64,000 nucleotides of DNA, taken from Gammaproteobacteria bacterium. Its GTDB lineage: Bacteria; Pseudomonadota; Gammaproteobacteria; JAPPPA01. The stretch covers positions 2,290 to 66,289 of the forward strand of contig JAUHZK010000009.1 of assembly GCA_030425645.1 (NCBI GenBank), written 5' to 3'. Position numbers and translations under genes: made by a program. Shown in pieces: positions 2,487 through 16,860 of this stretch (its first letter is position 1; every line of letters begins with the position of its first letter). The notes beneath the pieces were generated by a model, which saw nothing but the letters and a program-made list of their open reading frames with translations, did not search any database and was not told the DNA's origin.

Positions 2487-3827
2487 TCAGACCTGATTGG
2501 TTATAACTCGAGGAAGGAGCATATCTCGGATCATTTCTTCTTTCTGACTTTGTTGCTCTACCGAAGAAATGAGTTTGAATATCGGTGTTGTGATCTCATC
2601 AAATTTCGCCAAGGCCCCTTTGTTTGGAACCAAGACATCCATATTTTTTATTGTTCTAGAATTCACCGCAGTGGCAATTGAAGAGGTACTGCCAAGGCTT
2701 GAAAAATCAAATGTTCTCAGATACATCAAAAAATATTTTTCAGAAATAGAATCTTTAAAGTCATGAAAATGAGCAATCGCTTCATTTGTCGTGAGCTCGG
2801 TGCCAGCTATCGCTGTACGCCCCACAGTAAGCTTGAAGCTAAGCAGTACGGAATCACGAGGTATCACTCTGACATTAAATCGATTAATTGCCTCCTCAAC
2901 CAAATACTCTTTACTTGAACGTAAAAACATCCCCCCTTTACCCATATCTTTTATAGAAACCCAAACGTAGTTGCTTTCGCCATAAACATCAAACCAGTGT
3001 TCCTCTTTTCTAGGAGGCGTCTTACCTATTCCAATCGAAGATATATCCTTAGCCAACTTAAATTCCCAACCTTCTGGCAACCATTCACCAGACTTAGATA
3101 AGACAAATTTATCAGGGAAATTCTCACGAATGCTTCTGGGGGTTATTTGCTGATTTAGTTGTCTATATCGTTGTCGAGATAAAGCTCTTTTCTGAAATTG
3201 ATCTGGAATAGAATTTCCAGCTTCCAAGGCATTGTCGATTACAACGTCAAAATCAACGAACCAACTTTTATAAATAACTCTAAGCGTTTCGTTCAAAGTT
3301 ATAAGCACCTTATTATTGCAGGCAACCTTGTTATCGAGTGCTAACAATGGCGCTACTATTTCTGCCTGCTTTTCTGGCTCAGGGACATCAACAGTAATAG
3401 AGGAGAGTGCTCCTCCCGAGATTTCCTTAAATGTAGACCCGGAAGCACTGGCCTCGATTTCAGGAGTTTTATGTTTCAACGCGTAGTAGAAAAATTCACT
3501 ATTGTGTCCGTTTTTTAACACTAAGCTTTTGAAGCCTTGACTCGTAGATACTGGGTTTTTGGCAATAGCGACATAACCAATAGGCGCCCGCGAAGAAAAA
3601 AGCACAGCGCCTTTTGGTAACAATTTGGCGCTCGAATCATTCAAACCAGATTCTGTTAAGAACCGTTTCCCAGCGCCAACATACATATCACGGTTACTGG
3701 ATAAATCTTTTGGCGTCAGCCATGGAATACTCCCTTCCCAAAAAGTTGGTTCCTGGGTATCTGGTGTCCCACCTCCTATCACTGTGGCTACGTCCCCAAT
3801 AGTTAATTTTTCCCAATTAGAGCTCAT
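2487..3827 (-). CDS. hsdS: Type I restriction-modification specificity subunit (HsdS) with two target-recognition domains.
   Basis: The 446-aa product starts MSSNWEKLTIGDVATVIGGGTPDTQEPTFWEGSIPWLTPKDL, the canonical HsdS start of a target-recognition domain. It shows the repeated two-domain layout separated by conserved spacer regions. It overlaps the hsdM stop by 11 nt, a typical hsdM-hsdS coupling. The gene is AT-rich. Confidence 0.88.
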   Translation of the reverse strand: MSSNWEKLTIGDVATVIGGGTPDTQEPTFWEGSIPWLTPKDLSSNRDMYVGAGKRFLTESGLNDSSAKLLPKGAVLFSSRAPIGYVAIAKNPVSTSQGFKSLVLKNGHNSEFFYYALKHKTPEIEASASGSTFKEISGGALSSITVDVPEPEKQAEIVAPLLALDNKVACNNKVLITLNETLRVIYKSWFVDFDVVIDNALEAGNSIPDQFQKRALSRQRYRQLNQQITPRSIRENFPDKFVLSKSGEWLPEGWEFKLAKDISSIGIGKTPPRKEEHWFDVYGESNYVWVSIKDMGKGGMFLRSSKEYLVEEAINRFNVRVIPRDSVLLSFKLTVGRTAIAGTELTTNEAIAHFHDFKDSISEKYFLMYLRTFDFSSLGSTSSIATAVNSRTIKNMDVLVPNKGALAKFDEITTPIFKLISSVEQQSQKEEMIRDMLLPRVITNQV

Positions 3828-5418
3828 AACCGATAACCTTTAACTGCTGCAGCATTTCGGTTTGCAATTCTGCAGATTCATCTAGCAATTCTCTAAGTTC
3901 GCCACACAATGCTCCCATTTGCTCTTCATAGACGCTACTGTCGAATAGTTTCCCTTCTGCTCCAACGAACCTACCAGGAGTAATTTCATAGTTCTTTTCA
4001 GCGATGTCAGAGTGGGTGGCGCTTTTACAAAAACCAAGCTCATCGACATATTCTTTTGAGTCCGCGAACTCAGTGCCTCGCCAGCGGTGATATGTTTGTG
4101 AAATCTTTTCGATTGTTTCGTCTTGGAAAACAACCTGTGTCTTAGATATGTTCTCCGTCTCCAAGTTAGAACAATCCAGGAAAAGAACCTCACCATTTCT
4201 ATTGATGGAGCCATTGCCCCCCTCTGTCTTATCCTTTGAAAGAAACCAAATACATGCAGGTATAGTCACGTTTGAGAATAGCTTGGGCGGCAAGGCTAAG
4301 ATACATTCAACCTGATCGCCGAGAATCATAGCTTTTCGTATAGCGCCCTCGCCTGAAGACTGAGTAGTGAGCGAGCCATTCGCTAGAACAATACCTGCTC
4401 TTCCCTTTTGAGATAAACGGCTGAGCATATGCTGCAACCACGCATAGTTTGCGTTTCCGGCTGGCGGTACACCATATATCCAACGCGGATCATCTTTAAG
4501 AGCGTTTCCTTCCCAATCAGAGATATTGAATGGTGGGTTTGCGAGAATATAGTCGGCGCGTAGTTTGCTATGTTGGTCTTCCGTAAAAGTAGACCCGTAG
4601 GTTTTTCCAATATCTCCCTCCAAACCATGAACAGCCAAATTCATAAGGCATAACTTACGAGTAGCAGCCATATACTCCTGCCCATAAATAGCTAAATCAC
4701 CAACGTCTCCAGCTTTTTTTGCGTGTGCTTCCTTAAAGCGATTTGATTGAACAAACATGCCGCCTGACCCACAAGCAGGATCATAAATTTTGCCTTTGAA
4801 GGGGGCTAAAATTTCGACTATCAATGTTACGACTGATTTAGGGGTATAGAACTCTCCAGCACGCTGCCCTTCCGACATAGCGAACTTGCCCAGAAAGTAC
4901 TCGTAGACTTCTCCAAAAATGTCTTTGCTACCATGCGTTTGGGGGTCGAATTTGATTCTGGCAACTGTCGTCATCAACTCTCCCAATTTGCCAGGACCCA
5001 ATTCTAGTCGCCCAAAATCTCTGTATAAAACTCCTTTCAGGCGAGGGTTATCTTTCTCAATAGATGCCATAGCATCATCTAATAGCTGAGCGATATTTGA
5101 ACTAGAAGCCTTAGACAAAAGGACCGAAAATCGCGCTTCTTCTGGCACCCAAAAGACGTTGTCTTTGTCATAAAACGTTTTATCTTCAGTAAAAGCTGCC
5201 CCTGCATCTAGCCGAAGTTCCTCGTCTTCGATAAATAGTTCAGATTCAGGGTTTTTTAGCTCATCACGAATGAAGTCTCCCTGCGCTTCAAACATATCCG
5301 AAACATATTTCAGGAAAGTCAGCCCCAAAACTGGATATTTGTATTGTGCCGCCGAAACGGACCCCCTTAGGGAGTTAGCCATTCGCCAAAGTTCGGCTTT
5401 AAATTCTTCAGTTGTCAT
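3817..5418 (-). CDS. hsdM: Type I restriction-modification N6-adenine DNA methyltransferase subunit (HsdM).
   Basis: The 533-aa product has an N-terminal HsdM_N-like region (LRGSVSAAQYKYPVLGLTFLKYVSDMFE), an AdoMet-binding motif (IYDPACGSGGMF), and the catalytic NPPF motif (ILANPPFNISDW). Confidence 0.92.
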   Translation of the reverse strand: MTTEEFKAELWRMANSLRGSVSAAQYKYPVLGLTFLKYVSDMFEAQGDFIRDELKNPESELFIEDEELRLDAGAAFTEDKTFYDKDNVFWVPEEARFSVLLSKASSSNIAQLLDDAMASIEKDNPRLKGVLYRDFGRLELGPGKLGELMTTVARIKFDPQTHGSKDIFGEVYEYFLGKFAMSEGQRAGEFYTPKSVVTLIVEILAPFKGKIYDPACGSGGMFVQSNRFKEAHAKKAGDVGDLAIYGQEYMAATRKLCLMNLAVHGLEGDIGKTYGSTFTEDQHSKLRADYILANPPFNISDWEGNALKDDPRWIYGVPPAGNANYAWLQHMLSRLSQKGRAGIVLANGSLTTQSSGEGAIRKAMILGDQVECILALPPKLFSNVTIPACIWFLSKDKTEGGNGSINRNGEVLFLDCSNLETENISKTQVVFQDETIEKISQTYHRWRGTEFADSKEYVDELGFCKSATHSDIAEKNYEITPGRFVGAEGKLFDSSVYEEQMGALCGELRELLDESAELQTEMLQQLKVIGYEL

Positions 5419-5465: not shown

Positions 5466-6059
5466 TCAGTTTTCGAGCCTGTTAACTATTGCCGGATTCA
5501 TAGGAAACCCATGGCGCTTTAGCGCAGCATCTAAGGTTGCCCGAGTCACATTAAAATGCGCTGCCACATTTGTCTTAGTTATTTCTGGATCTGTCAGCAT
5601 CGCTGCGGCCTTCTTTGCATCAGAGGCATCCATCTTCGGTGTCCTCCCACCCTTGCGACCTCGGGCACGAGCGGCAGCTAAACCAGCCATCGTTCGTTCT
5701 CGTATCAAGCTACGCTCAAATTCAGCCAATGCACCAAATAAATGAAACACTAGTTTCCCCCCAGCGCTTCCTGTATCAATATTCTCAGAAATGGACCTGA
5801 AGGCGATATTGCGATGTTCGAGATCCGCTACGATTCCAACTAAATCCTTCAATGAACGACCGAGACGATCGAGCTTCCAAACAACCAGAACATCACCAGC
5901 CCGCAGCATTTGCAAACAAATATCTAGCTCCGGACGCGCTATTCCGGCACCGGGTACCTTTTCTTCATAAATACGCTCACACCCATCCCGCTCAAGTGCA
6001 TCGATCTGTAGGCCGGTGTTTTGATCTTGACTGCTAACGCGGGCATAACCAATCTTCAT
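5466..6059 (-). CDS. Serine recombinase of the resolvase / DNA-invertase family (Hin/Gin/TnpR-like).
   Basis: The 197-aa product starts MKIGYARVSSQDQNTGLQIDAL, with the catalytic serine in the conserved YARVSS context. Its size and C-terminal helix-turn-helix (TNVAAHFNVTRATLDAALKRHG) fit small serine recombinases. There is a ribosome-binding site (AAAGGTG) 7 nt upstream. Only 47 nt separate its stop from the hsdM start on the same strand. Confidence 0.85.
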   Translation of the reverse strand: MKIGYARVSSQDQNTGLQIDALERDGCERIYEEKVPGAGIARPELDICLQMLRAGDVLVVWKLDRLGRSLKDLVGIVADLEHRNIAFRSISENIDTGSAGGKLVFHLFGALAEFERSLIRERTMAGLAAARARGRKGGRTPKMDASDAKKAAAMLTDPEITKTNVAAHFNVTRATLDAALKRHGFPMNPAIVNRLEN

Positions 6060-6224
6060 TTAACGCACCTTTGATATACACAGATTGTTATACATAGTTT
6101 TTATACACATATCCACCATTATCTAACGTAATTTAATTACACTAGGACGGTGTATATAAAACGTTGGTTTTATAGCGCATAAATTTATAACACTTAGAAA
6201 AATGCATAAGAAAGGAAACGGGTC
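6060..6224. promoter_or_regulatory. AT-rich divergent promoter region carrying repeated TATACA(C/T)A motifs. It is a candidate recombination site (res or gix) for the adjacent serine recombinase.
   Basis: Three direct copies of the motif sit at about 6075-6082, 6089-6096 and 6102-6109. An inverted copy (TGTATATA) sits at about 6151-6158, and a near-palindrome (TTTATAGCGCATAAA) at about 6169-6183. The region lies immediately upstream of the recombinase start codon, where res sites of resolvases normally lie. Confidence 0.4.
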
Positions 6225-7514
6225 GTGGCAAATACAGAACTTGATTTCAAAATCCCAAGCCTTAAGGATGACATCTGGATCAATCAAGCTGAAAAAGCGA
6301 CAGAGTTAGCCGCTAAGATTCCAGGTGCACAACAGCCTAGAGTTTCCCTCACTGCTCTTGGTAAACAATATCAGGCCGACCCAAACAATCCTGATTGGCT
6401 TTCAGAACTGCGGGAGAAGCTCGCAAGCGCAGATGGTCACTACATATCATCAATATCAATTCAATTAACCGTCCCGGGTACAAGTGCTCAGCAACAAGGC
6501 CAGGTGAGTTTTTCGATAACGCGCATACCGGCTGAGCCAGTAGCAACATTGAAGGTTACGATCGGCCAGCACACAGCTGACGCACTGGATAAGCTGACAG
6601 CAATTAACACAGTAGTTGCGGAATTCCAGCCCATTGACCCTGTAGAGTCAAAAATTAGTTTGGCAACCGATGATGCCGCAGAGTATTTACGTCAGCTTGA
6701 CAATAAGCTCCAGCAATTGTCGAACGTTGCGATAGAACAGACGGAAAAAGTGACCGAAAACCTCCGAGAGCAAGCTCTTCGCAACCAGCAAACACTAGAC
6801 ACGGAGCGTGAGAAACTCCAAGCCGACTTCGATGCCAAGCAAGATGAACTTAAGAAACGCGAAGATATACTGACTAATCGTGTAAAAGATATTGACCTGG
6901 CTGATGCTAAGACTTCGCGCAGAAAGCTTAGAGACCAACTTAAAGAGAAACTGGACAGGCTTGCTGGAGAGTTAAAATTTACCAATCAAACCAATATTGA
7001 GCGCCGAGTGCTCTACGGAGTTCTAGCTTTCGGATTGATAGTTGGTGCAATTATTATAATTGAGGCCGGGCTTGCCATGACCAAGCCTGACGCAACAACT
7101 GGTAATGGCGCCTTCCTTATTGGCGCTCGTGCAACTGCTGGCTCAATATTGTTTGGCAGCGTACTAATCTATTTCATCCGCTGGCAATCAGCATGGGTTC
7201 ATCAACGAACAATGGAGGAGCTTAGGCTCCTTCGAACAAGCTTAGATGTTGAACGAGCAAGCTGGGTAGTAGAAAGCTTAGTAGAGTTCAAAAACGAACA
7301 AATCGACCAAATACCCGATGCGCTTCTTACAGCAGTTACTCGGAATCTCTTTGCAGACCCCGAACAGAATGCTGCAATCACTACTCCGGTAGATGATGTT
7401 GCAGATATACTCAGAAACGGTGCGGAGTCAGTCAAGCTTAAGCTAGGTGACCACGAAGTAGTTCTAGACCGCCGAAGCCTAAAAAAATTATCTGCTGCTC
7501 AAAATGCTGATTGA
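6225..7514 (+). CDS. Hypothetical coiled-coil membrane protein: N-terminal soluble domain, long coiled-coil, two transmembrane helices, C-terminal domain. No recognisable family.
   Basis: GTG start with a ribosome-binding site (AAGGAAA) 8 nt upstream. The 429-aa product has a heptad-rich, charged segment (about residues 150-255: LRQLDNKLQQLSNVAIEQTEKVTENLREQALRNQQTLDTEREKLQADFDAKQDELKKRED). Two hydrophobic helices follow (VLYGVLAFGLIVGAIIIIEAGLA and AFLIGARATAGSILFGSVLIYFI). No catalytic motif was recognised. Confidence 0.6.
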   Translation: MANTELDFKIPSLKDDIWINQAEKATELAAKIPGAQQPRVSLTALGKQYQADPNNPDWLSELREKLASADGHYISSISIQLTVPGTSAQQQGQVSFSITRIPAEPVATLKVTIGQHTADALDKLTAINTVVAEFQPIDPVESKISLATDDAAEYLRQLDNKLQQLSNVAIEQTEKVTENLREQALRNQQTLDTEREKLQADFDAKQDELKKREDILTNRVKDIDLADAKTSRRKLRDQLKEKLDRLAGELKFTNQTNIERRVLYGVLAFGLIVGAIIIIEAGLAMTKPDATTGNGAFLIGARATAGSILFGSVLIYFIRWQSAWVHQRTMEELRLLRTSLDVERASWVVESLVEFKNEQIDQIPDALLTAVTRNLFADPEQNAAITTPVDDVADILRNGAESVKLKLGDHEVVLDRRSLKKLSAAQNAD

Positions 7515-8063
7515 GGACTTTTAACCCCTACCACCAAACCTGTCCAAGCCACGTATACACGAAGCAATCAACGTGAAAAACCTAGGAACGTTGGATACTT
7601 TTCGTAGCAAAGAGCATAACTAATAACGCATTGCTAATTTACAGAACACCGTCCGCTGGTTTGTATTTTCGCCATCAAACGCGCCTGATAGACTAGTGGA
7701 ATACTCAAAGAATCGGACTAACCCGCCCCAAACCGAGTAGTTAGCACTTGTAAGTTGTAACTGAACCATATGCAGTGCATACGGCTACTAGCACCACCAG
7801 TCGCCCCAGAAATATAAGCAATTCAACAGAAAACCAACAAATACGGAGAAACGTATTGCCCAAAATATTGAGCTATGCGATGTTAGCTCGATGTTTGCTC
7901 AAGTTCGCGACATAAAGACACAACACAAATGCCCCGTGGGCAAACAGTTATGTGCAACAAAATCGTATGTTTCTTCTGCCCATATCGGATATATCCCGTT
8001 TTGGCCGCTTGGTAAGTAACTTGATAAGCAACAGCGAAACAGCCGAAGTCCGGCCACTGTCAA

Positions 8064-8432
8064 TTATTTAGTCCAGCAACTTTGCGGAGACCGGTTTCCC
8101 AATCGGTCCAGCGACAAATTCGTACAACCACTATCGTTTAGCTGATCACCTGTCGCAGTGGCCGTTACTAAATAGCCGCGATCAGCCGGGGTCGTTACTT
8201 GAAGCATATAACGGCCGTTCTCACTGCTAGCTGCGGCAACATTACTAAAAGTGCCATTAAGCGTCACCAGCTGCTCTTGCCGTGCTGCCAGCTCCATCAT
8301 TTCGCCTTGCACGTCTTTACGATGACTCTGCAGCACCATCAAACGATAATTCGGTATCGCCCAAGCCGCGATAATGCCGGCAATGGCCATGGTGATTAGA
8401 ATCTCGAGTAAGCTAAAACCACGTTGTTTCAC
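8064..8432 (-). CDS. pilE: Type IV pilus minor pilin PilE.
   Basis: The 122-aa product has the class III prepilin signal MKQRGFSLLEILITMAIAGIIAA (G|F cleavage site, Glu at +5). It is the last gene of the fimU-pilVWXY1 operon. Confidence 0.85.
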   Translation of the reverse strand: MKQRGFSLLEILITMAIAGIIAAWAIPNYRLMVLQSHRKDVQGEMMELAARQEQLVTLNGTFSNVAAASSENGRYMLQVTTPADRGYLVTATATGDQLNDSGCTNLSLDRLGNRSPQSCWTK

Positions 8433-8459
8433 AGCTTCTTATCCTTGCATTGGCAACAG

Positions 8460-11400
8460 TTACCGCAGCTGACGCCAAGTTGAGCGACTACGTTCATAAC
8501 CGATTGGGTTAACCACTGTGCGCTCTATGCCACCGTCGGCGCCGCTAGTTAGATGAATTTCATTACCGTCTGCAGTAATGAGAATGGTTGGCACTGGATT
8601 ATAAGTACCATCAGAGAAACGCCCAGCTGGCGTTAATAGATTACCGTCGCCATCATCGTAGCGGTCATCAAAGGTCACGGAGCCATCACCGTTAAGGTCA
8701 AATGGCGGCAACACGGTTGGTGATCCATCCGCGGCATCCAATTCAAACAGCCAATTGCTAATCGCCGGGTTACAAATCGCTTCGTCGAGAATAGTGGTAG
8801 AGATCAGCAAACGATCATTCCTTAGAATCGGATCGGCCACGACCCTTTCGCCTTGGTTATCAGCCGTAGCTAGCGCTGCCACACTGCTGGCCTCAGCCAG
8901 ATCCATATACCAGCCTAACGTGGTGCTCCAATCAATGGGACCGTCAGCCTGACCATTGCTATCGCCATCATCGGTATCGCTACTAACAATTCTGATAACA
9001 GCGCTTTCTTGGCTACCATCCAGATCCGTATCAATATTGACGTTGACGGAATCCAGAATCAGGCGGCGCCGGTACTTGGTTTTATCACTAATATTTAAGC
9101 CCGTACTTTCGTTCTTGTCCCATATGCCATAGATCGACTGGGTGTAGTGCACTTCACCAACAGCATCAGCTTCCAACATTTCGCCGGTACCAAAAATCAC
9201 CAACTGACCCTCGTCCGCCGGGTGGTTCGGGTGCAACATCACCATCGGCTCGGTCGTAATCGGTTGTGGAACCCCACTAAAGTTGGTCGCTTGGAACAAC
9301 GCCGCAGGGTCGCCGCCACTGCTGGCAGAGAAACCCCAGTTGGCCTCATCGGTATCAGTAAGATCCAACTTCCACAAATTACCAACTAGGTCACCGGAAT
9401 AGACGTAATCAACGGAGCGGTCATTCTCAACGTCAACAACAGCCATTGTCGCTAGGCCATTAGGCACAGAAGTCGGTAAGTTAATGGTTTGCAGCAGGCT
9501 ACTACTGTCATCAACTAAATCCGGCAAAGTGACGGTAACACCCGGCGTTAGCAGTACTTGGCTAAGGTCAAGAAACGCCCCTACCTTGGTGTCGAAGGTT
9601 CGCACCAAAATACCCGTTTCCATATCAATCGCATAAGCGTAAGCATTACCGGTAACGCTGAACGACAGAATAGATGTCGAATCCAAGGAGGTATCGACAT
9701 CTTGCAAACCCAAATCAATTTCGGTGTTGTTATAACCGTTACTCATTAATACGGCCCAGTCACCAGTGGCGTTGGCGTCGCTACCGAAACCAAAATCGGC
9801 TGCCGTAAGCACGATATTGGGCTGCGCGAAGGTATACCCCATACCCGCATGTCCACGCTCCTCATCGGTTTGTAGAATTACGTCGAGAAGCGGTTCTACG
9901 AAGCTGGCACCAACAAAATTTTCAACCAAATTACCCAAGTCCAAAAAGCCAATATCACAAAGCCCCAGCAAGGCATCACAGAGCGCATCTTGAATAAGGT
10001 CGTTCACTAGCTGTTTCAGTTGTCCCGACAAAGAACCCGCATCGGTAAACTCCCACAACACAACCTCTTCAGCATTGTTTTCAGAGAAGCGTCCAGCCTG
10101 ATAATTTCCAGAGCTGTCGTAGCTACCCGGATCAGTGACATCCAAGGCATAGATGCCCTGACCACCTCGTCCTAAAGAACCGACCAATACCGTTCGCCAG
10201 CATGGCGATGAGGCACCACAGCCCGGATAGCGACCAAACACATCGACCACACTAATCTGTCCATCGACATAAGCTTCCGGAGCAAAGTCCGTATCGGCAT
10301 AATCTTTTAAGTTACTCAGTACCCTCGATGGCACAAACGCAATCCGCTCTTCACCCGTGGTGGCATCAAAGCCATGCAACATGCCGTCATTAGCGCCGAC
10401 ATACACCATGGGCGCACGGTCAGCATAATCGAGGGCAAACTGGTGATATCGTTTAGCGGCAATATCAGATGGGTTTTCAAACTCATCCGGATAATCAAAA
10501 TTAGGAGCGCCAACAAACACAGGATTACTCGACAGGATTGGTCCCAGCACGGTGCTCGTTCTGTCTCGTTGAGTACCGCCGTTCTGCTGCTCTCCTGAAC
10601 GCTCACCACGAACATATTCAATCTCAGCCGCTGACAAGCCATCGGTGATACCAATGGTTTCCAGCAAACCTTCTAAACCGAGAGCATTTAGACCGCTTAA
10701 AATCGTGTCCAATAACGGTTGAATCGGCAGTAATAACAAATCTAATGCGCTGCCAACAGCGCCAAGCAAAGTACCCAGAATATCTAAGCTTAGAATCGAG
10801 TTACCAACGCCTTCCAACTGGCTACCAATACCACCTATAAGTGGAATAGCCCCAAAAAACTGAGCATCGGCCAAGGCCGTAGTCGTAAACGGAATGCCAC
10901 CACTGTTATATCCAGTGGCAACACTCGCCTCACGACGCGGATCGTAGGTCATCACCACCCGGCCACTATCACTGGTTAATTGCGAGGCTGCATCCCACTG
11001 CTCCGTGAGAGTGCCATCCGCGCCCAGCTGGTAAGCAATTAAATTGCCAGACCAATTATCAAAGTTGTAACTGGTGGTGAAAATCAGCGTATTGCCATCA
11101 AACTGAGTCGACGAAGCCGTGGTATTGGTGCCCGATAAGCGACTACCACCAATTTCATTCAATGCAGCAATCAGCTGCGCCACCCCGCCACTGCCGAGTC
11201 CACTCAAGTATTGACCACGGCCATTAGCAGTAGCGTGTTTTAGCTCTGTTAGTAGGGCCGCATATTCAAAAGCATCGCTGACATCCGGCTCATAGGGCGC
11301 TGATGCCGGTAATGCAAACAACGGCGTTGGCCAGTTGCCCATCCCGGCCAAAATATCATCAACGTCACCACTGCCCGCCTCAGCCGAAACCACTAGGGCA

Positions 11401-13073
11401 TGGGTATGCATACGTTGTGTGCCCTCTAGGCCTGGCTGCAGGTCATCTTCATAGGCATCCATAGCGGCATCGGCTAAGGTTCCAGCGACACCATCAGCAT
11501 AAGGCTCGCCATCGCTGGTACTACTGTCATCGCTGTCGTGGTCAGTAGCGGGCGTTAGAGTATTGTGACTTTGTTTGCTGTCGCCCTGCGCGCCTGTTTC
11601 TGCAGGATAGTCCGTGTGCGACACGGTTAAACCGTGTGCGGTACTGTAACCATCGGTTACCAATACGGCATTGTGAGCCTGACACTCACCACCATCAGCT
11701 TCCGCTAGAACCGGACAGGAGCTATCTCCCACCACATTCTGGTTTTCCTGGGTTTCAGTGCCACTGAAATAACTGGCATAGCGTGTTGCAGCACTGCAGC
11801 GGAAGTAATTGCCAGCATCTTCTAAGGCGCGCCGTAACGGCGTTGCAGTGGCGGCTGCTTCGGTGCTGTAGATTGCATCCAATAGCGCGCGTTTATTACC
11901 AGATTGCAAGGAGTCGGCAGTCGTTACCGACACTGCGGGCACGGCAATAGCGTCATTCTGATGAATAGTTGCATAAGCCAGAGCCAGCCCATTTGCCGCT
12001 TCAACCAGACTTGCCGCCACGCCTTTGGCAACTAACTCTCGGCTGCGGTAGTACTGGAACCAGTTGGCAAAATTCACCAAGGTAGCATCGGTATTCGCCA
12101 ATCCAGTCAGGTCAACTTCGGTGCCATCGGCTTCGTAATAAAGCGCGACTTTGTAACGTGTATCCACTTCATCAGTACAGGTGAACAAACCAAGCAAGCC
12201 ACAACTGTAAGAACGACTAAAGAACTGATGGGTAATGGTGTCGTAGTTACCATTCGCCAAACGAATAATCGAAGTCGGCTGGTGCACAGACTTAATATTT
12301 AACGTTGCTGAGCTAGCGTTATATGGGTCGAGGCGCACCGCTAAAGGGTTGGCGTCAGCATAGGCAACACCGGCGCTATCAACCCCAGGCCAAGGGCTGT
12401 AGGTCTTATTCGGGTCAAAATAAATGGCGTTAAAACTTGCCGAACGTAACTGCCAAACATTAGCCAAATCACCACTTTGATCTGGCGCAGCGGAGATTCC
12501 TGCTGCGCTGCGCACCCATGAAGTTGATGCCAAGGCATCCAGTAAGCGCTTGGAGGGCGGTATCTGTGCGCAGAATGGGCTCGCTTCCTCATCTGGCAGT
12601 CGCAAGGCATTAACCGCAGCATTGCTTAGGCCGCTGTCGCGGCAAGTACCCGCAGCTGAGTTAAACCGCTCTGGCACAGGAAACAGCCACGGGTATATTA
12701 AACGCCCGTCATCGGTAGCACGCGCCATACCCTGCGCTTGGTCAGCGCCGCCATTACGCTGGCCACCACTGCCTGTTTTCTCGACCGTGGTGTCTGCCGC
12801 ACGATGATCTAAGGTAAAGCTAGACGACATACTTAGAGAGTCGTCCATCAAAATCAGCACATTGGCGTCAGCCTGCGCACCTAAAAATAACGGGCTTTCA
12901 TTCAGCGAGAACTGCCGGTGAGTAAGGCCAGCCAGGTCTAGGCTTAATGCCTGAAGCGGTGCGACCACTAGCATCAAGACTAAGCCCAACAGCAGGTTAA
13001 GCCCTGCCGGCCTACACAAACGGCTTCGCCAATGCATGCGCCTATTTAAAGCAGTTGTTTTAAAAGCCATGAT
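8460..13073 (-). CDS. pilY1: Type IV pilus tip-associated adhesin PilY1, unusually long at about 1537 aa.
   Basis: The listed ORF (8460-13205) overlaps the pilX 3' end; the internal start MAFKTTALNRRMHW at about 13073 gives a signal peptide. It has an N-terminal vWA-like motif (VLILMDDSLSMS). It has the C-terminal PilY1 beta-propeller region (PMVYVGANDGMLHGFDATTGEE), a calcium-loop-like segment (DVENDRSVDYVYSGDLVGNLW), and ends RSTWRQLR. A Gly/Leu-rich low-complexity insert precedes the C-terminal domain. Confidence 0.85.
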   Translation of the reverse strand: MMAFKTTALNRRMHWRSRLCRPAGLNLLLGLVLMLVVAPLQALSLDLAGLTHRQFSLNESPLFLGAQADANVLILMDDSLSMSSSFTLDHRAADTTVEKTGSGGQRNGGADQAQGMARATDDGRLIYPWLFPVPERFNSAAGTCRDSGLSNAAVNALRLPDEEASPFCAQIPPSKRLLDALASTSWVRSAAGISAAPDQSGDLANVWQLRSASFNAIYFDPNKTYSPWPGVDSAGVAYADANPLAVRLDPYNASSATLNIKSVHQPTSIIRLANGNYDTITHQFFSRSYSCGLLGLFTCTDEVDTRYKVALYYEADGTEVDLTGLANTDATLVNFANWFQYYRSRELVAKGVAASLVEAANGLALAYATIHQNDAIAVPAVSVTTADSLQSGNKRALLDAIYSTEAAATATPLRRALEDAGNYFRCSAATRYASYFSGTETQENQNVVGDSSCPVLAEADGGECQAHNAVLVTDGYSTAHGLTVSHTDYPAETGAQGDSKQSHNTLTPATDHDSDDSSTSDGEPYADGVAGTLADAAMDAYEDDLQPGLEGTQRMHTHALVVSAEAGSGDVDDILAGMGNWPTPLFALPASAPYEPDVSDAFEYAALLTELKHATANGRGQYLSGLGSGGVAQLIAALNEIGGSRLSGTNTTASSTQFDGNTLIFTTSYNFDNWSGNLIAYQLGADGTLTEQWDAASQLTSDSGRVVMTYDPRREASVATGYNSGGIPFTTTALADAQFFGAIPLIGGIGSQLEGVGNSILSLDILGTLLGAVGSALDLLLLPIQPLLDTILSGLNALGLEGLLETIGITDGLSAAEIEYVRGERSGEQQNGGTQRDRTSTVLGPILSSNPVFVGAPNFDYPDEFENPSDIAAKRYHQFALDYADRAPMVYVGANDGMLHGFDATTGEERIAFVPSRVLSNLKDYADTDFAPEAYVDGQISVVDVFGRYPGCGASSPCWRTVLVGSLGRGGQGIYALDVTDPGSYDSSGNYQAGRFSENNAEEVVLWEFTDAGSLSGQLKQLVNDLIQDALCDALLGLCDIGFLDLGNLVENFVGASFVEPLLDVILQTDEERGHAGMGYTFAQPNIVLTAADFGFGSDANATGDWAVLMSNGYNNTEIDLGLQDVDTSLDSTSILSFSVTGNAYAYAIDMETGILVRTFDTKVGAFLDLSQVLLTPGVTVTLPDLVDDSSSLLQTINLPTSVPNGLATMAVVDVENDRSVDYVYSGDLVGNLWKLDLTDTDEANWGFSASSGGDPAALFQATNFSGVPQPITTEPMVMLHPNHPADEGQLVIFGTGEMLEADAVGEVHYTQSIYGIWDKNESTGLNISDKTKYRRRLILDSVNVNIDTDLDGSQESAVIRIVSSDTDDGDSNGQADGPIDWSTTLGWYMDLAEASSVAALATADNQGERVVADPILRNDRLLISTTILDEAICNPAISNWLFELDAADGSPTVLPPFDLNGDGSVTFDDRYDDGDGNLLTPAGRFSDGTYNPVPTILITADGNEIHLTSGADGGIERTVVNPIGYERSRSTWRQLR

Positions 13074-13092
13074 GCCCCCTGCGCCAACCCCA

Positions 13093-13698
13093 TTAGTAGC
13101 GCCTGATAAAAGTTGATTGCAACACCACTTGTGTCGCTGTTGTCGCGCCAAACCCAATCGCCGAAACTTCGTATAGGTAGCGCCCTGGTGGCCGCCCATG
13201 ACCACGGTTCAAGCTATCTGGAATAAAGCGCACTTCGCGAATCAGGTATCTCGGCGCCTCACCAGACCCCGGCGGTATATCCGCAATGTCATTAGCGTCG
13301 GCATCGATAAAGCGCCCGTGCTGTTGCCACTGTGCCAGCGTTAATCCGGAGATAGCCGTGGCGAAGTCATCCGCCGCAGCGCCGCCAAAACTAAGCAATT
13401 CAGCATCGTCCAACACGTCTACGTCCAAGCAATTACCGCTGGCAGCGTCAGCACATTCCTGCTCGTGAGGCAAATTGACCAGTCCATCTAACCAGCGCTC
13501 GGCATCGCGCAGGGCGGCTTCGGCCGCCTCCAAGGCGATAGCTCTGTCCATCGTGTGACGCGCCATACGCTCTTCTAGAAAACTGGTACGCAAGGCTGTC
13601 ATTCCAAGCACGGTCAACACTAAAAGCAGAATTAAAGTAACCACCAATACGGCGCCACTCTGCGACCGGCCCATTGCCTGTGGGGAAACCCTATTCAT
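13093..13698 (-). CDS. pilX: Type IV pilus minor pilin PilX.
   Basis: The 201-aa product has an N-terminal hydrophobic segment (GAVLVVTLILLLVLTVLGMTALR) typical of PilX. It sits between pilW and pilY1. Confidence 0.8.
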   Translation of the reverse strand: MNRVSPQAMGRSQSGAVLVVTLILLLVLTVLGMTALRTSFLEERMARHTMDRAIALEAAEAALRDAERWLDGLVNLPHEQECADAASGNCLDVDVLDDAELLSFGGAAADDFATAISGLTLAQWQQHGRFIDADANDIADIPPGSGEAPRYLIREVRFIPDSLNRGHGRPPGRYLYEVSAIGFGATTATQVVLQSTFIRRY

Positions 13699-14654
13699 CG
13701 TGTCAGGTTCCTCAATGCGATGGTTTGCGTGAACTGCTGCTGCAACGTCTCGGCCGTTGAAATGGTTTGAGCGGCAACCGTTTCTAGTAAATCTAGCGTT
13801 CGGCCACCTTTAACGTCTATCGTCACCCTTAAGGCTCGCACCCGGTTCAGGTCAGGTACGGCAGAGAAGTTTTGATAAACATCCACAACCTGATCGCCGC
13901 TTGTATCAACCCCAAGTTCGACCTGAAATGCGGTCACATCCTCGACTAAGGTGAGCGCCGAGAACTGCGAGCCACTGCCGCTACTATTGAGGTAACGATA
14001 CGGCGTACCGCCGTTCTCTTGCACAATGCGTTCTCGTCGGCAATGCAGCCTAAACCGGCTGCGACCATCTTCAGCGCTATCCGCTACTCTGGCGTAGATG
14101 ATATCGGCGGCGTATAAGGTGAAAAAATTGACGTCATCAGACGGATCGGCAGTGCCCTGCTCGTCCAGCTCTTCCACGCCACCAAATACGGTATCGCCAG
14201 CGCAATCGGTTACCGCACCGTCTTCAGCCCCGCCTTGATAACGCACAACCAATACATCGCTATAAGTCGCAACATTATCCAATGCGATGGTATCGCCACC
14301 GACCACGACGTTAACGCTACGAGTACTAAAACTGAGTGGAGCCGGCTCACCCGTTACAGGCAGATCAGTACCATCAACACCTGTCACCATACGGTTATTG
14401 CTGTCAGTAAAGGTTAGGTCGGGCAACTTTTCCTGAGTAAAGCGATAACCGGTATTTCGCACCGAATGATTAATAAAATTTAGAGCAAAGCGGCCGCTTT
14501 CCTGTAGGCGTGACTGAGCCAAAATGCGGTTATGAGTGGCTTTGCTACTGATAAAAATTTGATAACTAAGCGCAAGAATAACGAGCCCAATGGTCATCCC
14601 AACCATTAGCTCTATCAAGCTCGCACCGCGTTGCTGCTGTCGTAGGGTGCTCAT
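13695..14654 (-). CDS. pilW: Type IV pilus minor pilin PilW.
   Basis: The 319-aa product has a prepilin-like N-terminus (QRGASLIELMVGMTIGLVILALS). Start and stop overlap neighbours by 4 nt on both sides (translational coupling). Confidence 0.82.
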   Translation of the reverse strand: MSTLRQQQRGASLIELMVGMTIGLVILALSYQIFISSKATHNRILAQSRLQESGRFALNFINHSVRNTGYRFTQEKLPDLTFTDSNNRMVTGVDGTDLPVTGEPAPLSFSTRSVNVVVGGDTIALDNVATYSDVLVVRYQGGAEDGAVTDCAGDTVFGGVEELDEQGTADPSDDVNFFTLYAADIIYARVADSAEDGRSRFRLHCRRERIVQENGGTPYRYLNSSGSGSQFSALTLVEDVTAFQVELGVDTSGDQVVDVYQNFSAVPDLNRVRALRVTIDVKGGRTLDLLETVAAQTISTAETLQQQFTQTIALRNLTR

Positions 14655-15100
14655 GGGGTCATCACCAACTGAAACTGCTCGACATTGCCGTCGCGCAGCT
14701 CATCCCATTGCAAGGTAATGGTATAGGCCTGGCCCGTCGCACAAGGGGCAGCACATACAGCGCTACCTTGTCCGGCTGGCAAAGAAGATGTCACTAAGGC
14801 TTGCCAAGCGGCGATGTCGGCGGCACTAATGGTGTTACGCAGACTGCCACTAGTGTCATATCCGCCTTGGCGCGCAATGGTTTTGTTGGCTCGCATACGG
14901 TCGGCATAGTCTTGTGCTAACAAACCCGCCTGCGTTCGCCATAACGCCGCGTTGTTGGTCCGTAACCCGTTAAATTGCATGCTCGCAACGGCTAACAGCC
15001 CAATGGTGCCGATCAACATCGCGATCAACGACTCAATCAGCGTGATGCCACGCTGTTTAGCCGCAAGATTTTGTACCCTCAAACTCACGACGCCGCACAC
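14651..15100 (-). CDS. pilV: Type IV pilus minor pilin PilV.
   Basis: The product contains KQRGITLIESLIAMLIGTIGLLA, a prepilin cleavage motif with Glu at +5. The true start may be an internal GTG or TTG, which would give a shorter leader. Confidence 0.8.
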   Translation of the reverse strand: MCGVVSLRVQNLAAKQRGITLIESLIAMLIGTIGLLAVASMQFNGLRTNNAALWRTQAGLLAQDYADRMRANKTIARQGGYDTSGSLRNTISAADIAAWQALVTSSLPAGQGSAVCAAPCATGQAYTITLQWDELRDGNVEQFQLVMTP

Positions 15101-15729
15101 CGATTTGCCGAGATATCACCGCTAGTGAACGAGCCCACGGTGGTCTGCCCAATGCGACTAATAACTAGCTTTCTAGCGTGCCGAATACGCTCTGATGTTG
15201 AGGCGGTTTCGGTTCCAGGCCCACAAATGAACAAACTGCCAATACTGCCCGCGGCAGTGCTGTCTTGACGGAAACCAATTTGATCACTGACATTGGCATT
15301 GCCGCGCACGGTGAAACCACCGCCCAATGCATTTTGCACCTGCAGCAAGGTATCACCAGCACTAACACTATCTGAGCGGTCGCTATCAGCCACCACCAAC
15401 CAGCCGTCCTCCCAACCATCAGCGGTCGTCGCTGTGGTCGTCGTCACACAGCTACAGTGGCTGGCAGTGGTCAAATTACTGTCAGTACAGGCAGCACTGC
15501 TATCGGCCGTTTGCGGGCGGCGGCATAAATAGACGGAAGTACCGCGCGTTAGTGCTTCAGAACGCGCGTACTGAATAGCCGCGAGCAAATCGTTAGCGGT
15601 ACTCGCCGCTCGATTACGCTTCACAAAACTAGAAAGATTAGGAACAACGCCCACGACCAAAACCGCGGCAACGATCAACGTTACCATCAGCTCCAGCAAA
15701 GTGAATCCTTTTGCCCCGTTTCGATACAT
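15085..15729 (-). CDS. fimU: Type IV pilus minor pilin FimT/FimU (GspH family).
   Basis: The 214-aa product starts MYRNGAKGFTLLELMVTLIVAAVLV, a prepilin motif. It is the first gene of the minor-pilin operon, and a 144-nt promoter region lies upstream. Confidence 0.8.
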   Translation of the reverse strand: MYRNGAKGFTLLELMVTLIVAAVLVVGVVPNLSSFVKRNRAASTANDLLAAIQYARSEALTRGTSVYLCRRPQTADSSAACTDSNLTTASHCSCVTTTTATTADGWEDGWLVVADSDRSDSVSAGDTLLQVQNALGGGFTVRGNANVSDQIGFRQDSTAAGSIGSLFICGPGTETASTSERIRHARKLVISRIGQTTVGSFTSGDISANRCAAS

Positions 15730-15873
15730 TTAGACATGCCCCTAGACCAGCCCCCTGGTCCGAAAAAACCAAGCCCGTTAGGCCTAGTTTCTGTTATGAC
15801 ACTCGCTCTACGCAAACGCCAGCATTAACTGACCAGCTTAGCTTATTTTAGGATAAACGGTCTATTATTTGAA

Positions 15874-16860
15874 TCATTGTTCAATGGCCGCAGAAGTCGC
15901 ACTAGCGCTAACTTTCTGTGCCTCTAAGCGGAGTAAGTTTTTCGGCACCGAAAAGACCACATTTTCGGGTGTACCAACCACCTCATCAGCAGTTTTGCCA
16001 CCCCACTGTTGCAGCTGCTCAATCACGCGCTTTACCAACACTTCCGGCGCCGACGCTCCGGCTGTTAGTCCGACGGACTTGGCATCAGCAAACCAATCTT
16101 GTTGCATGTCTTCTGGGCCGTCGATCAAATAACCCGCAACCCCCCGCTCAGTGGCGATTTCGCGCAGGCGATTGGAGTTAGAGCTATTACGTGAACCCAC
16201 TACCAATAGCACGTCGACATCTTTCACTAACTGCTTTACGGCGTCTTGCCTATTCTGCGTCGCGTAACAAATATCATTTTTGCGCGGCCCGGAAATCGCC
16301 GGAAAACGCTTTCTTAACTCATCAATAACGACCGAGGTGTCATCTACCGACAACGTGGTCTGAGTGACATAAGCCAGACTGTCTGGGTTTTTGACGTCCA
16401 GTTCCCAGACGTCACTGGGCGACTCCGCCAAATGCATACGGCCGCCACTCTGAGCCTCAAATTGCCCCATTGTGCCTTCAACTTCAGGGTGCCCCTTATG
16501 GCCAATCAACACCACATCACGATTTTCTTTGGAGTATTTAGCAACTTCAATATGCACTTTGGTCACCAACGGGCAGGTTGCATCAAACACCTGCAAGCCG
16601 CGGTTTTTCGCTTCTTGCTGAATCGCTTTGGAAACACCATGAGCGCTAAAGATAACGGTAGCGTCGTCCGGAACCTCGTCCAGCTCTTCAACAAACACCG
16701 CGCCCATATCGCGTAGACGGTTAACCACAAAACGGTTATGAACCACCTCGTGGCGTACATAAATAGGTGCCCCTAGGGCTTCAATAGCGCGCTCTACAAT
16801 TTCAATCGCGCGATCCACACCGGCACAAAACCCACGCGGGTTTGCGAGCAAAATTTCCAC
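15874..16860 (-). CDS. ispH: 4-hydroxy-3-methylbut-2-enyl diphosphate reductase IspH (LytB).
   Basis: The 328-aa product has the N-terminus [23 protein letters not shown], including the conserved Cys. Gene order is ispH next to the fimU operon, then lspA-ileS-ribF-murJ-rpsT, as in Pseudomonas. Confidence 0.93.

Follow-up and report, generated by a model that had tools for sequence, protein, structure and literature searches.

A two-helix membrane protein encoded beside a resolvase and a Type I restriction-modification operon belongs to a large unannotated family with a possible role in defence

What might a membrane protein contribute to the restriction-modification (R-M) system next to which it is encoded? 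The question is raised by a 64,000-nucleotide stretch of gammaproteobacterial DNA (assembly GCA_030425645.1, contig JAUHZK010000009.1, positions 2,290 to 66,289 of the forward strand; hereafter, the window), in which a gene for a 429-amino-acid (aa) protein (6225-7514, plus strand) lies beside a Type I R-M operon. An earlier reading of the letters alone (the sequence-only reading) had taken this protein for an orphan and for a candidate defence or abortive-infection effector. The protein turns out to be no orphan: when 1.84 billion cluster representatives (50%-identity clusters) were searched exhaustively with HMMER, 1,439 of them matched the family profile at E<=1e-3, with 1,302 of these reaching E<=1e-10 and 842 reaching E<=1e-30. 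Moreover, genes of this family adjoin Type I R-M genes recurrently, in several lineages and in several arrangements, and the candidate-defence reading is plausible, albeit unproven.

The open reading frame (ORF) begins with GTG and ends with TGA, and a Shine-Dalgarno-like AAGGAA (6212-6217, plus strand) is found 8 nt upstream of the start codon. In the alignment with a 67%-identical homologue (locus L005), this GTG falls opposite the ATG of the latter, and a protein with 100% identity to that of the window, with GTG taken as Met, is encoded on seven Joint Genome Institute (JGI) metagenome contigs, on which the neighbours are identical in type to those of the window. The length, the GTG start, and the ribosome-binding site of its own, as proposed from the letters, thus hold up, as does the divergent orientation relative to the recombinase gene, which occupies the minus strand (5466-6059).

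The family is real, ancient, and horizontally scattered. Most of the best 150 of the 1,439 representatives are 410-440 aa in length and are matched end to end. Word-indexed searching found only 10 relatives; when repeated with a 110-sequence alignment, it gave nine proteins, eight of them known from the first such search and the ninth (P0106) part of the query alignment itself. When species-representative genomes were scanned with a single peptide pattern, 44 loci emerged, the sources of which were Deferribacteres, Holophagae, Kiritimatiellales, Nitrospira, Planctomycetota, Verrucomicrobiota, Acidobacteriota, Myxococcota, alpha-, gamma-, and deltaproteobacteria, and a metagenome-assembled genome (MAG) of Paceibacterota. 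The distribution is patchy, spans more than ten phyla, and is non-syntenic. Members come mostly from environmental bacteria, which are poorly sampled by current catalogues, with the gene being rare in cultured collections and present in 3 of 72,556 plasmids. It was found in none of 50,697 deposited phage genomes, eight prophage-type contigs of IMG/VR carry it, and one family gene used as a DNA query gave no match in a collection of E. coli genomes. In the source annotation, the ten representatives considered were either nameless or labelled "hypothetical protein". In one Enterobacteriaceae MAG (L048), the family gene is in two pieces (7969-8898 and 10037-10510) with a 375-aa ORF between them, which may reflect disruption by an insertion sequence (IS).

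In the window, the R-M system is encoded to the left of the family gene, entirely on the minus strand. HsdM, the Type I methyltransferase (3817-5418), matches Pfam N6_Mtase (1.3e-99), HsdM_N, and PADLOC MTase_I (1.5e-161); HsdS, the specificity subunit (2487-3827), matches Pfam Methylase_S (5.3e-42) over two stretches, i.e., it has two target-recognition domains; and HsdR is represented by its N-terminal 799 aa (2-2398), which match HsdR of EcoR124 in a phmmer search of PDB sequences (5.5e-32), with the gene continuing past the left window edge. The components of a Type I R-M system are thus all present, HsdR as a window-edge partial, and hsdS overlaps hsdM by 11 nt. Upstream of hsdM by 47 nt, on the same strand, is the gene for a small serine recombinase of the resolvase/invertase type (Pfam Resolvase, 7.6e-43), in which the catalytic motifs GYARVSSQDQ and DRLGR are intact; the protein has the catalytic domain with a nucleophilic serine and the C-terminal helix-turn-helix (HTH) region expected of this class, the HTH_7 match itself being sub-threshold (17.1 bits against a Pfam cutoff of 23.8). 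The location of the family gene beside an R-M system, as first read, is thereby confirmed.

This arrangement is not peculiar to the window. We compiled approximately 71 non-redundant loci, each flanked by 3 kb or more of sequence, for which neighbour gene calling was crude and annotation partial, and found Type I R-M genes adjoining the family gene in seven (window included), in at least four arrangements. Within the subclade of the window protein, the linkage is seen in four of the five loci with sequence context. On the contig of P0004 (47% identity), the order is hsdR-x-hsdS-hsdM-resolvase, divergent from the family gene, and in L005 and L006 (67% identity) an hsdM-resolvase pair is likewise divergent from it. 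More distantly, L004 (31% identity) has hsdM-hsdS-GIY-YIG/DUF4357-hsdR followed by the family gene on the same strand, beside Tn7-like TnsA and TnsB; in L049, hsdS-hsdR is followed 21 nt on by the family gene, also on the same strand; and in L012, a Type I methyltransferase gene (hsdM) begins 47 nt downstream of the family gene. In L035, a Type I R-M system is situated approximately 3.5 kb away, with a caspase/CHAT protein (6646-8268) encoded in between. This last locus, from a Paceibacterota MAG of the Candidate Phyla Radiation (CPR), where the family gene is immediately preceded by an HTH gene and followed by a metallophosphoesterase gene, is a compact defence-type island in a reduced genome. 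Assuming one Type I system per 4-Mb genome, which is our own estimate and not a measured rate, approximately 0.4 Type I adjacencies would be expected, against which even five independent adjacency events would be a large excess, with a Poisson probability of approximately 1e-5 to 1e-4.

Tight linkage of an extra gene to Type I hsd genes is a property of two known backup effectors, PrrC and RonA, and for the family it is seen at seven loci with non-orthologous HsdMs. PrrC is a soluble anticodon nuclease. RonA, in contrast, is a membrane effector of 61 aa with one predicted transmembrane (TM) helix, which is inhibited by HsdMS and released by the anti-restriction proteins Ocr, ArdA, or Aop1; in the same work, PrrC is cited as providing backup immunity via abortive infection (bioRxiv 10.1101/2023.04.06.535777). 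The likeness of the window gene to Ronin (RonA with HsdMS) and to PrrC of the Ecoprr locus would thus be one of gene linkage and, as we propose, of defence in two layers, with the second one coupled to the Type I system. There are also clear differences: neither PrrC nor RonA resembles the 429-aa protein in sequence or size, a complete hsdR is present here, the gene is divergent from the operon in the clade of the window, and most family members are not beside R-M at all.

The same linkage could instead be explained by a non-lethal accessory role in which the protein serves as a membrane tether or regulator, placing or controlling HsdMSR at the inner membrane, e.g., at sites of DNA entry. That the gene is directly beside hsdR or hsdM on the same strand in L004, L049, and L012, that it adjoins non-orthologous Type I systems, and that no toxin-like domain was detected would all agree with such a role, and a long stalk carrying a cytoplasmic N-terminal domain (see below) would suit a scaffold. 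However, approximately 90% of family loci are without Type I R-M within the fetched flank, so a role specific to R-M cannot account for the whole family, and we regard a tether or regulator as quite unlikely.

Comparison of the window with L005 indicates which of these genes have remained together. The family genes of the two loci encode proteins with 67% identity and the resolvases are 63% identical, whereas the adjacent HsdM proteins share only 26%. In L005 (856-3758), the resolvase gene overlaps hsdM by 4 nt; there, as in the window, the genes of the hsd operon strand begin with it. Judged from these identities, the resolvase and the family gene are a conserved divergent pair that stayed beside Type I R-M while the R-M genes were exchanged, which suggests that R-M cassettes are replaced next to a conserved recombinase module. 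Two further ORFs, in L062 (9563-10393) and L063 (57-716), correspond to no more than the last 120 residues of a close relative (55% identity), and the sequence before these residues is unrelated. Since the L062 island also holds an HsdM 68% identical to that of the window and two resolvases, the fragment looks like a decayed copy.

The region shared by the divergent pair in the window is 165 nt long and contains a repeat cluster (6062-6169), comprising three direct 13-14-nt repeats of a TATACA type at 6071-6111, which read TTGATATACACAGA, TTGTTATACATAGT, and TTTTTATACACATA, as well as a copy in inverted orientation at 6150-6161. The TATACA-type pattern has three exact matches in the 64-kb window, all of them in this cluster. 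In L005, the corresponding region (3761-3871) has an inverted repeat of another sequence, with position and spacing as in the window (69 nt against 68 nt). The repeats are probably binding sites for the resolvase (res sites or an operator), and their pattern in the two loci is consistent with binding sites that co-evolve with their recombinase. We also considered an invertible element or phase variation, for which we found no support, as convincing long inverted repeats were absent from both the flanks of the gene and hsdS.

The protein might serve a mobile element rather than the cell, whether in entry or superinfection exclusion, in addiction or stabilization, or as a membrane component of a serine-recombinase, Tn7-like, or prophage element. 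This would fit with the resolvase-gene pair being better conserved than the adjacent R-M, with the res-like repeats in the shared promoter region, with Tn7-like cargo in L004 and L106, with the eight prophage-type contigs of IMG/VR, and with the integrases, IS elements, and phage tail or capsid genes found among neighbours. Set against this are the complete absence of the family from the deposited phage genomes, its presence in only three of the plasmids, and the many loci with no mobile-element gene nearby. A function for the mobile element thus seems improbable to us, to about the same degree as the tether.

A defensive setting does recur beyond Type I R-M. A Pseudoalteromonas megaplasmid carries a Tn7-like element with the family gene, a GIY-YIG nuclease, a restriction endonuclease, an AAA ATPase, and a UvrD helicase, and a Photobacterium plasmid holds the family gene with Fic, Abi-family, and AIPR genes and IS elements. 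Further neighbours are HerA, PDC-S33, and a PD-T4-6-type kinase, as well as reverse transcriptases, AAA_21, DUF3800, integrases, an IS66 element, and genes for phage tails or capsids.

Several observations nonetheless weigh against a defensive role. Defence-type neighbours were recognized in a minority of the approximately 71 loci, under the partial gene calling and annotation noted above, and most of these loci have no recognized defence gene within three genes of the family gene. Many neighbours are housekeeping genes, including those for ribonucleotide reductase, aconitase, purine biosynthesis, and tRNA synthetases, at many loci no others are seen, and all-against-all clustering of neighbours revealed no partner gene conserved across the family. 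L008, a close relative and the fifth of the subclade loci, has immediate neighbours that are neither resolvase nor hsd, with a CsrA-like gene upstream, although its contig measures only 2.9 kb. The background rate behind the excess of Type I adjacencies is estimated rather than measured. Finally, no known pore, toxin, or enzymatic domain was detected in Pfam, NCBIfam, PHROGs, PADLOC, PDB, or Foldseek comparisons.

Two sets of neighbours recurred in unrelated settings. Three unrelated loci (L004, at 12182-16352, and two metagenome loci) have ribonucleotide reductase genes near the family gene, which could be an insertion hotspot or coincidence. Also, a Sel1-repeat protein is encoded immediately downstream of two distant family members (L008, 1902-2720; L028, 9001-9606), in opposite orientations.

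Such heterogeneity is what might be expected of an ordinary envelope or stress membrane protein whose adjacency to R-M is incidental to its residence in variable genome regions, and the lack of any defence-family match above coiled-coil noise would agree with this. It is harder to reconcile with a patchy, non-syntenic occurrence over more than ten phyla, with the carriage of the gene on plasmids and transposons inside defence islands, and with seven Type I adjacencies in at least four arrangements where approximately 0.4 would be expected under the assumed density of Type I systems. We therefore consider incidental adjacency rather unlikely. The sequence-only reading had named two outcomes that would speak against a defence role, namely a spread through core genomes without any tie to defence genes, or clear kinship with a housekeeping family of the chemoreceptor or sensor kind. 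We instead found a patchy family in which Type I R-M recurs, and neither the window protein nor 110 family members has a detectable MCPsignal, HAMP, HisKA, or HATPase output domain.

A full-length AlphaFold2 model of the window protein, built with a 10-sequence alignment (mean predicted local distance difference test [pLDDT] score of 71), is laid out as a domain at residues 1-135, a near-continuous helix at 151-251, a membrane helical hairpin, a long helix reaching residue 357, and a poorly modelled C-terminal end. The N-terminal region (residues 1-140; 6225-6644, plus strand) comprises an alpha+beta domain, cytoplasmic by prediction, which when folded alone as residues 1-135 is predicted with a pLDDT of 86.8 and a predicted template modelling (pTM) score of 0.80. 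It is followed by a long charged helix or coiled-coil stalk (residues 151-251; 6675-6977, plus strand), modelled as helices 151-223 and 227-251, at the end of which is the invariant motif R232 R233 ... R236. Hydropathy places TM helix 1 at residues ~263-285 (7011-7079, plus strand; Kyte-Doolittle peak of 2.51, within a modelled helix of 254-285) and TM helix 2 at residues ~297-317 (7113-7175, plus strand), with a short unconserved loop between them. The layout first proposed, of an N-terminal domain of approximately 150 aa, a coiled coil, and two closely spaced TM helices, is thus supported by modelling and hydropathy, with the qualification that the heptad pattern is only moderate (hydrophobic residues at 50-75% of a/d positions).

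Both hydrophobic helices were found in 119 of 156 family members. Across the family, the conserved anchors flanking the hairpin have a median separation of 55 aa (5th-95th percentile, 51-77), which implies that the hairpin is tight and that next to nothing protrudes beyond the membrane. A signal peptide is absent from the window protein, the basic residues of which lie on both flanks of the hairpin, with a single one inside the short loop; by the positive-inside rule, both large parts of the protein, N- and C-terminal, would therefore be cytoplasmic.

Conservation is concentrated immediately beside the membrane. Scored as the mean frequency of the commonest residue in each region of the family alignment, it is highest after TM helix 2 (0.71, residues 318-378), followed by the segment before TM helix 1 (0.56, residues 226-262), the C-terminal region (0.45, moderate), the N-terminal domain (0.25, residues 1-140, the least conserved part of the protein apart from the loop), and the loop between the TM helices (0.13, residues 286-296). 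The segment after TM helix 2 (7176-7358, plus strand) bears the motif IRWxxxW...EE...LDxxRASWVxE...P...TxxLF, with W320, W324, E332, R344, E350, and F376 invariant in the 110-sequence alignment, as are R232, R233, T256, and R260 on the other side of the hairpin. Since conservation peaks beside the membrane and not in the N-terminal domain or the loop, the family signature can be read as a cytoplasmic, membrane-proximal helix pair rich in Arg, Glu, and Trp, distinct from both the TM helices and the N-terminal domain. The small remaining C-terminal region (residues 379-429; 7359-7511, plus strand) is modelled as a beta-hairpin and a helix at low confidence (pLDDT, 41-57). A C-terminal domain of approximately 110 aa had been described from the letters as lacking a recognizable catalytic motif; this remains so, but it is no nondescript tail, given that it contains the most conserved stretch of the family. 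In the longer relatives P0080 and P0130, a domain swap was ruled out, as the N-terminal domain is of the same kind and the extra length is a longer coiled coil.

These features did not lead to any described family. For the window protein, searches of Pfam, NCBIfam, PHROGs, PADLOC, and PDB sequences yielded nothing that rose above noise; 110 relatives gave no real match in Pfam or PADLOC; the family profile gave none among PDB sequences; and Foldseek found no structural match in the PDB at E<=1e-3. SLATT, which had been suggested along with abortive-infection pore formers, was absent from the Pfam matches of the window protein and the 110 members at E<=0.01 (among the 25 of 28 families listed), and no other known effector domain was detected. 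The PADLOC "2TM" effector gave one weak match among the 110 members. The likeness to the 2-TM and SLATT effectors of CBASS, Pycsar, and related systems is therefore one of a close pair of TM helices, a potential effector function, and a defence-island setting; unlike them, the family gene has no associated nucleotide cyclase, and the conserved element is the cytoplasmic segment after TM helix 2 rather than the TM pair. In architecture, the protein also recalls the CorA/MRS2 Mg2+ channels, with their N-terminal alpha/beta domain, long stalk helix, and two C-terminal TM helices; the window protein has neither the GMN motif after TM helix 1 nor a CorA-family sequence match.

A few defence families were matched weakly. 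Against PADLOC AbiZ (PDLC02354), the window protein scored E=8.9e-5 (20 bits), with residues 158-288, i.e., the coiled coil and TM helix 1, aligned to profile positions 163-295, and it also matched ZorA weakly over coiled-coil residues 139-248. Among the 110 members, weak PADLOC matches were to the dynamin-like LeoBC of Eleos (32), LmuB (15), and ZorA (12), and also to JetC, all of them coiled-coil-containing; the best E-values for ZorA and LeoBC (12-32 of the 110 members) were ~1e-5 to 1e-6, and no MotA_ExbB or dynamin family was among the Pfam matches listed. We treat the AbiZ, ZorA, LeoBC, LmuB, and JetC matches as probably compositional, because they all fall on coiled coils or on coiled-coil-containing families. 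Distant homology to lactococcal AbiZ would account for the E-value of the window protein, and the two have more in common: AbiZ, like other single-gene membrane Abi proteins, is a protein of approximately 400 aa with membrane helices, an N-terminal domain of no recognizable function, and a location on mobile DNA. AbiZ is membrane-acting without a recognized domain, and is thought to act with phage holin to bring about premature lysis (PMC13064643). However, the proposed relation draws on PADLOC statistics, and among the 110 family members just one has an AbiZ match at E<=0.01. In the window protein, this stretch of coiled coil also weakly matches ZorA, other members weakly match LeoBC, LmuB, ZorA, or JetC, and the alignment stops short of the conserved signature after TM helix 2. 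Homology to AbiZ is thus very improbable.

Taken together, we tentatively favour, with somewhat less than even confidence, an accessory defence gene working in the manner of the R-M-linked backup effectors PrrC or RonA. For the suggestion of a defence or abortive-infection effector, this means that the recurrent adjacency to Type I R-M at seven loci and the occurrence in defence and mobile islands are in its favour, whereas the majority of loci without a defence gene and the lack of a SLATT or other known effector domain are not. The family is one of inner-membrane hairpin proteins, in which a variable N-terminal domain is joined through a stalk of variable length to a tight two-helix hairpin and a conserved membrane-adjacent segment; in the subclade of the window, the gene is paired divergently with that of a small serine recombinase, and the two travel together at the start of Type I R-M operons. 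A variable N-terminal domain combined with a conserved membrane-proximal module fits a sensor-plus-effector layout, and we propose the former as a sensor or partner-binding domain. From this we infer a possible course of events, in which (i) the N-terminal domain would monitor the Type I R-M complex or sense a phage product, (ii) the stalk would mediate oligomerization, and (iii) the conserved hairpin and membrane-proximal module would compromise the inner membrane, such that infection is aborted. A bolder form of this proposal is that the window protein is the founding member of a new and widespread single-gene anti-phage family (at least 1,400 50%-identity clusters, spread over many phyla), with the hairpin and membrane-proximal module constituting an undescribed membrane effector, recruited in several lineages as a guard of Type I R-M, such that the cell dies or is arrested once R-M has been disabled by anti-restriction proteins of a phage; in this full form, the proposal is rather unlikely. 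The window protein lies outside every family tested; the strategy, that of a membrane effector riding with R-M, is already known.

The composition of the surrounding DNA is consistent with an acquired island, as GC content is 0.39-0.47 over the R-M genes, the resolvase gene, and the family gene, compared with 0.50-0.56 in the pilus genes. The latter are directly to the right of the island (8064-15729, minus strand) and form a type IV minor-pilin operon with genes for a pilin resembling ComP, the DNA uptake sequence (DUS) receptor, a 1,581-aa PilY1, PilX, PilW, and FimU/GspH-like proteins. The low-GC island appears to have been inserted downstream of a pilin gene. After the pilin operon come ispH, lspA, and ileS, as read from the identical JGI contigs L001 and L002 and matching ORFs of the window.

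Ultimately, the window gene is a testable candidate with a proposed function, in a family whose association with defence is mixed. Should the family prove defensive, it would add a large and wholly unannotated group of membrane effectors to the anti-phage repertoire, and would provide, after RonA and PrrC, a further and unrelated example of a Type I R-M system carrying its own backup effector. The conserved resolvase-gene pair beside non-orthologous R-M operons, for its part, hints at a recombinase-based exchange of R-M cassettes. Even if the family is not defensive, a conserved group of at least 1,400 clusters without a Pfam, NCBIfam, or PDB relative merits definition as a family in its own right.

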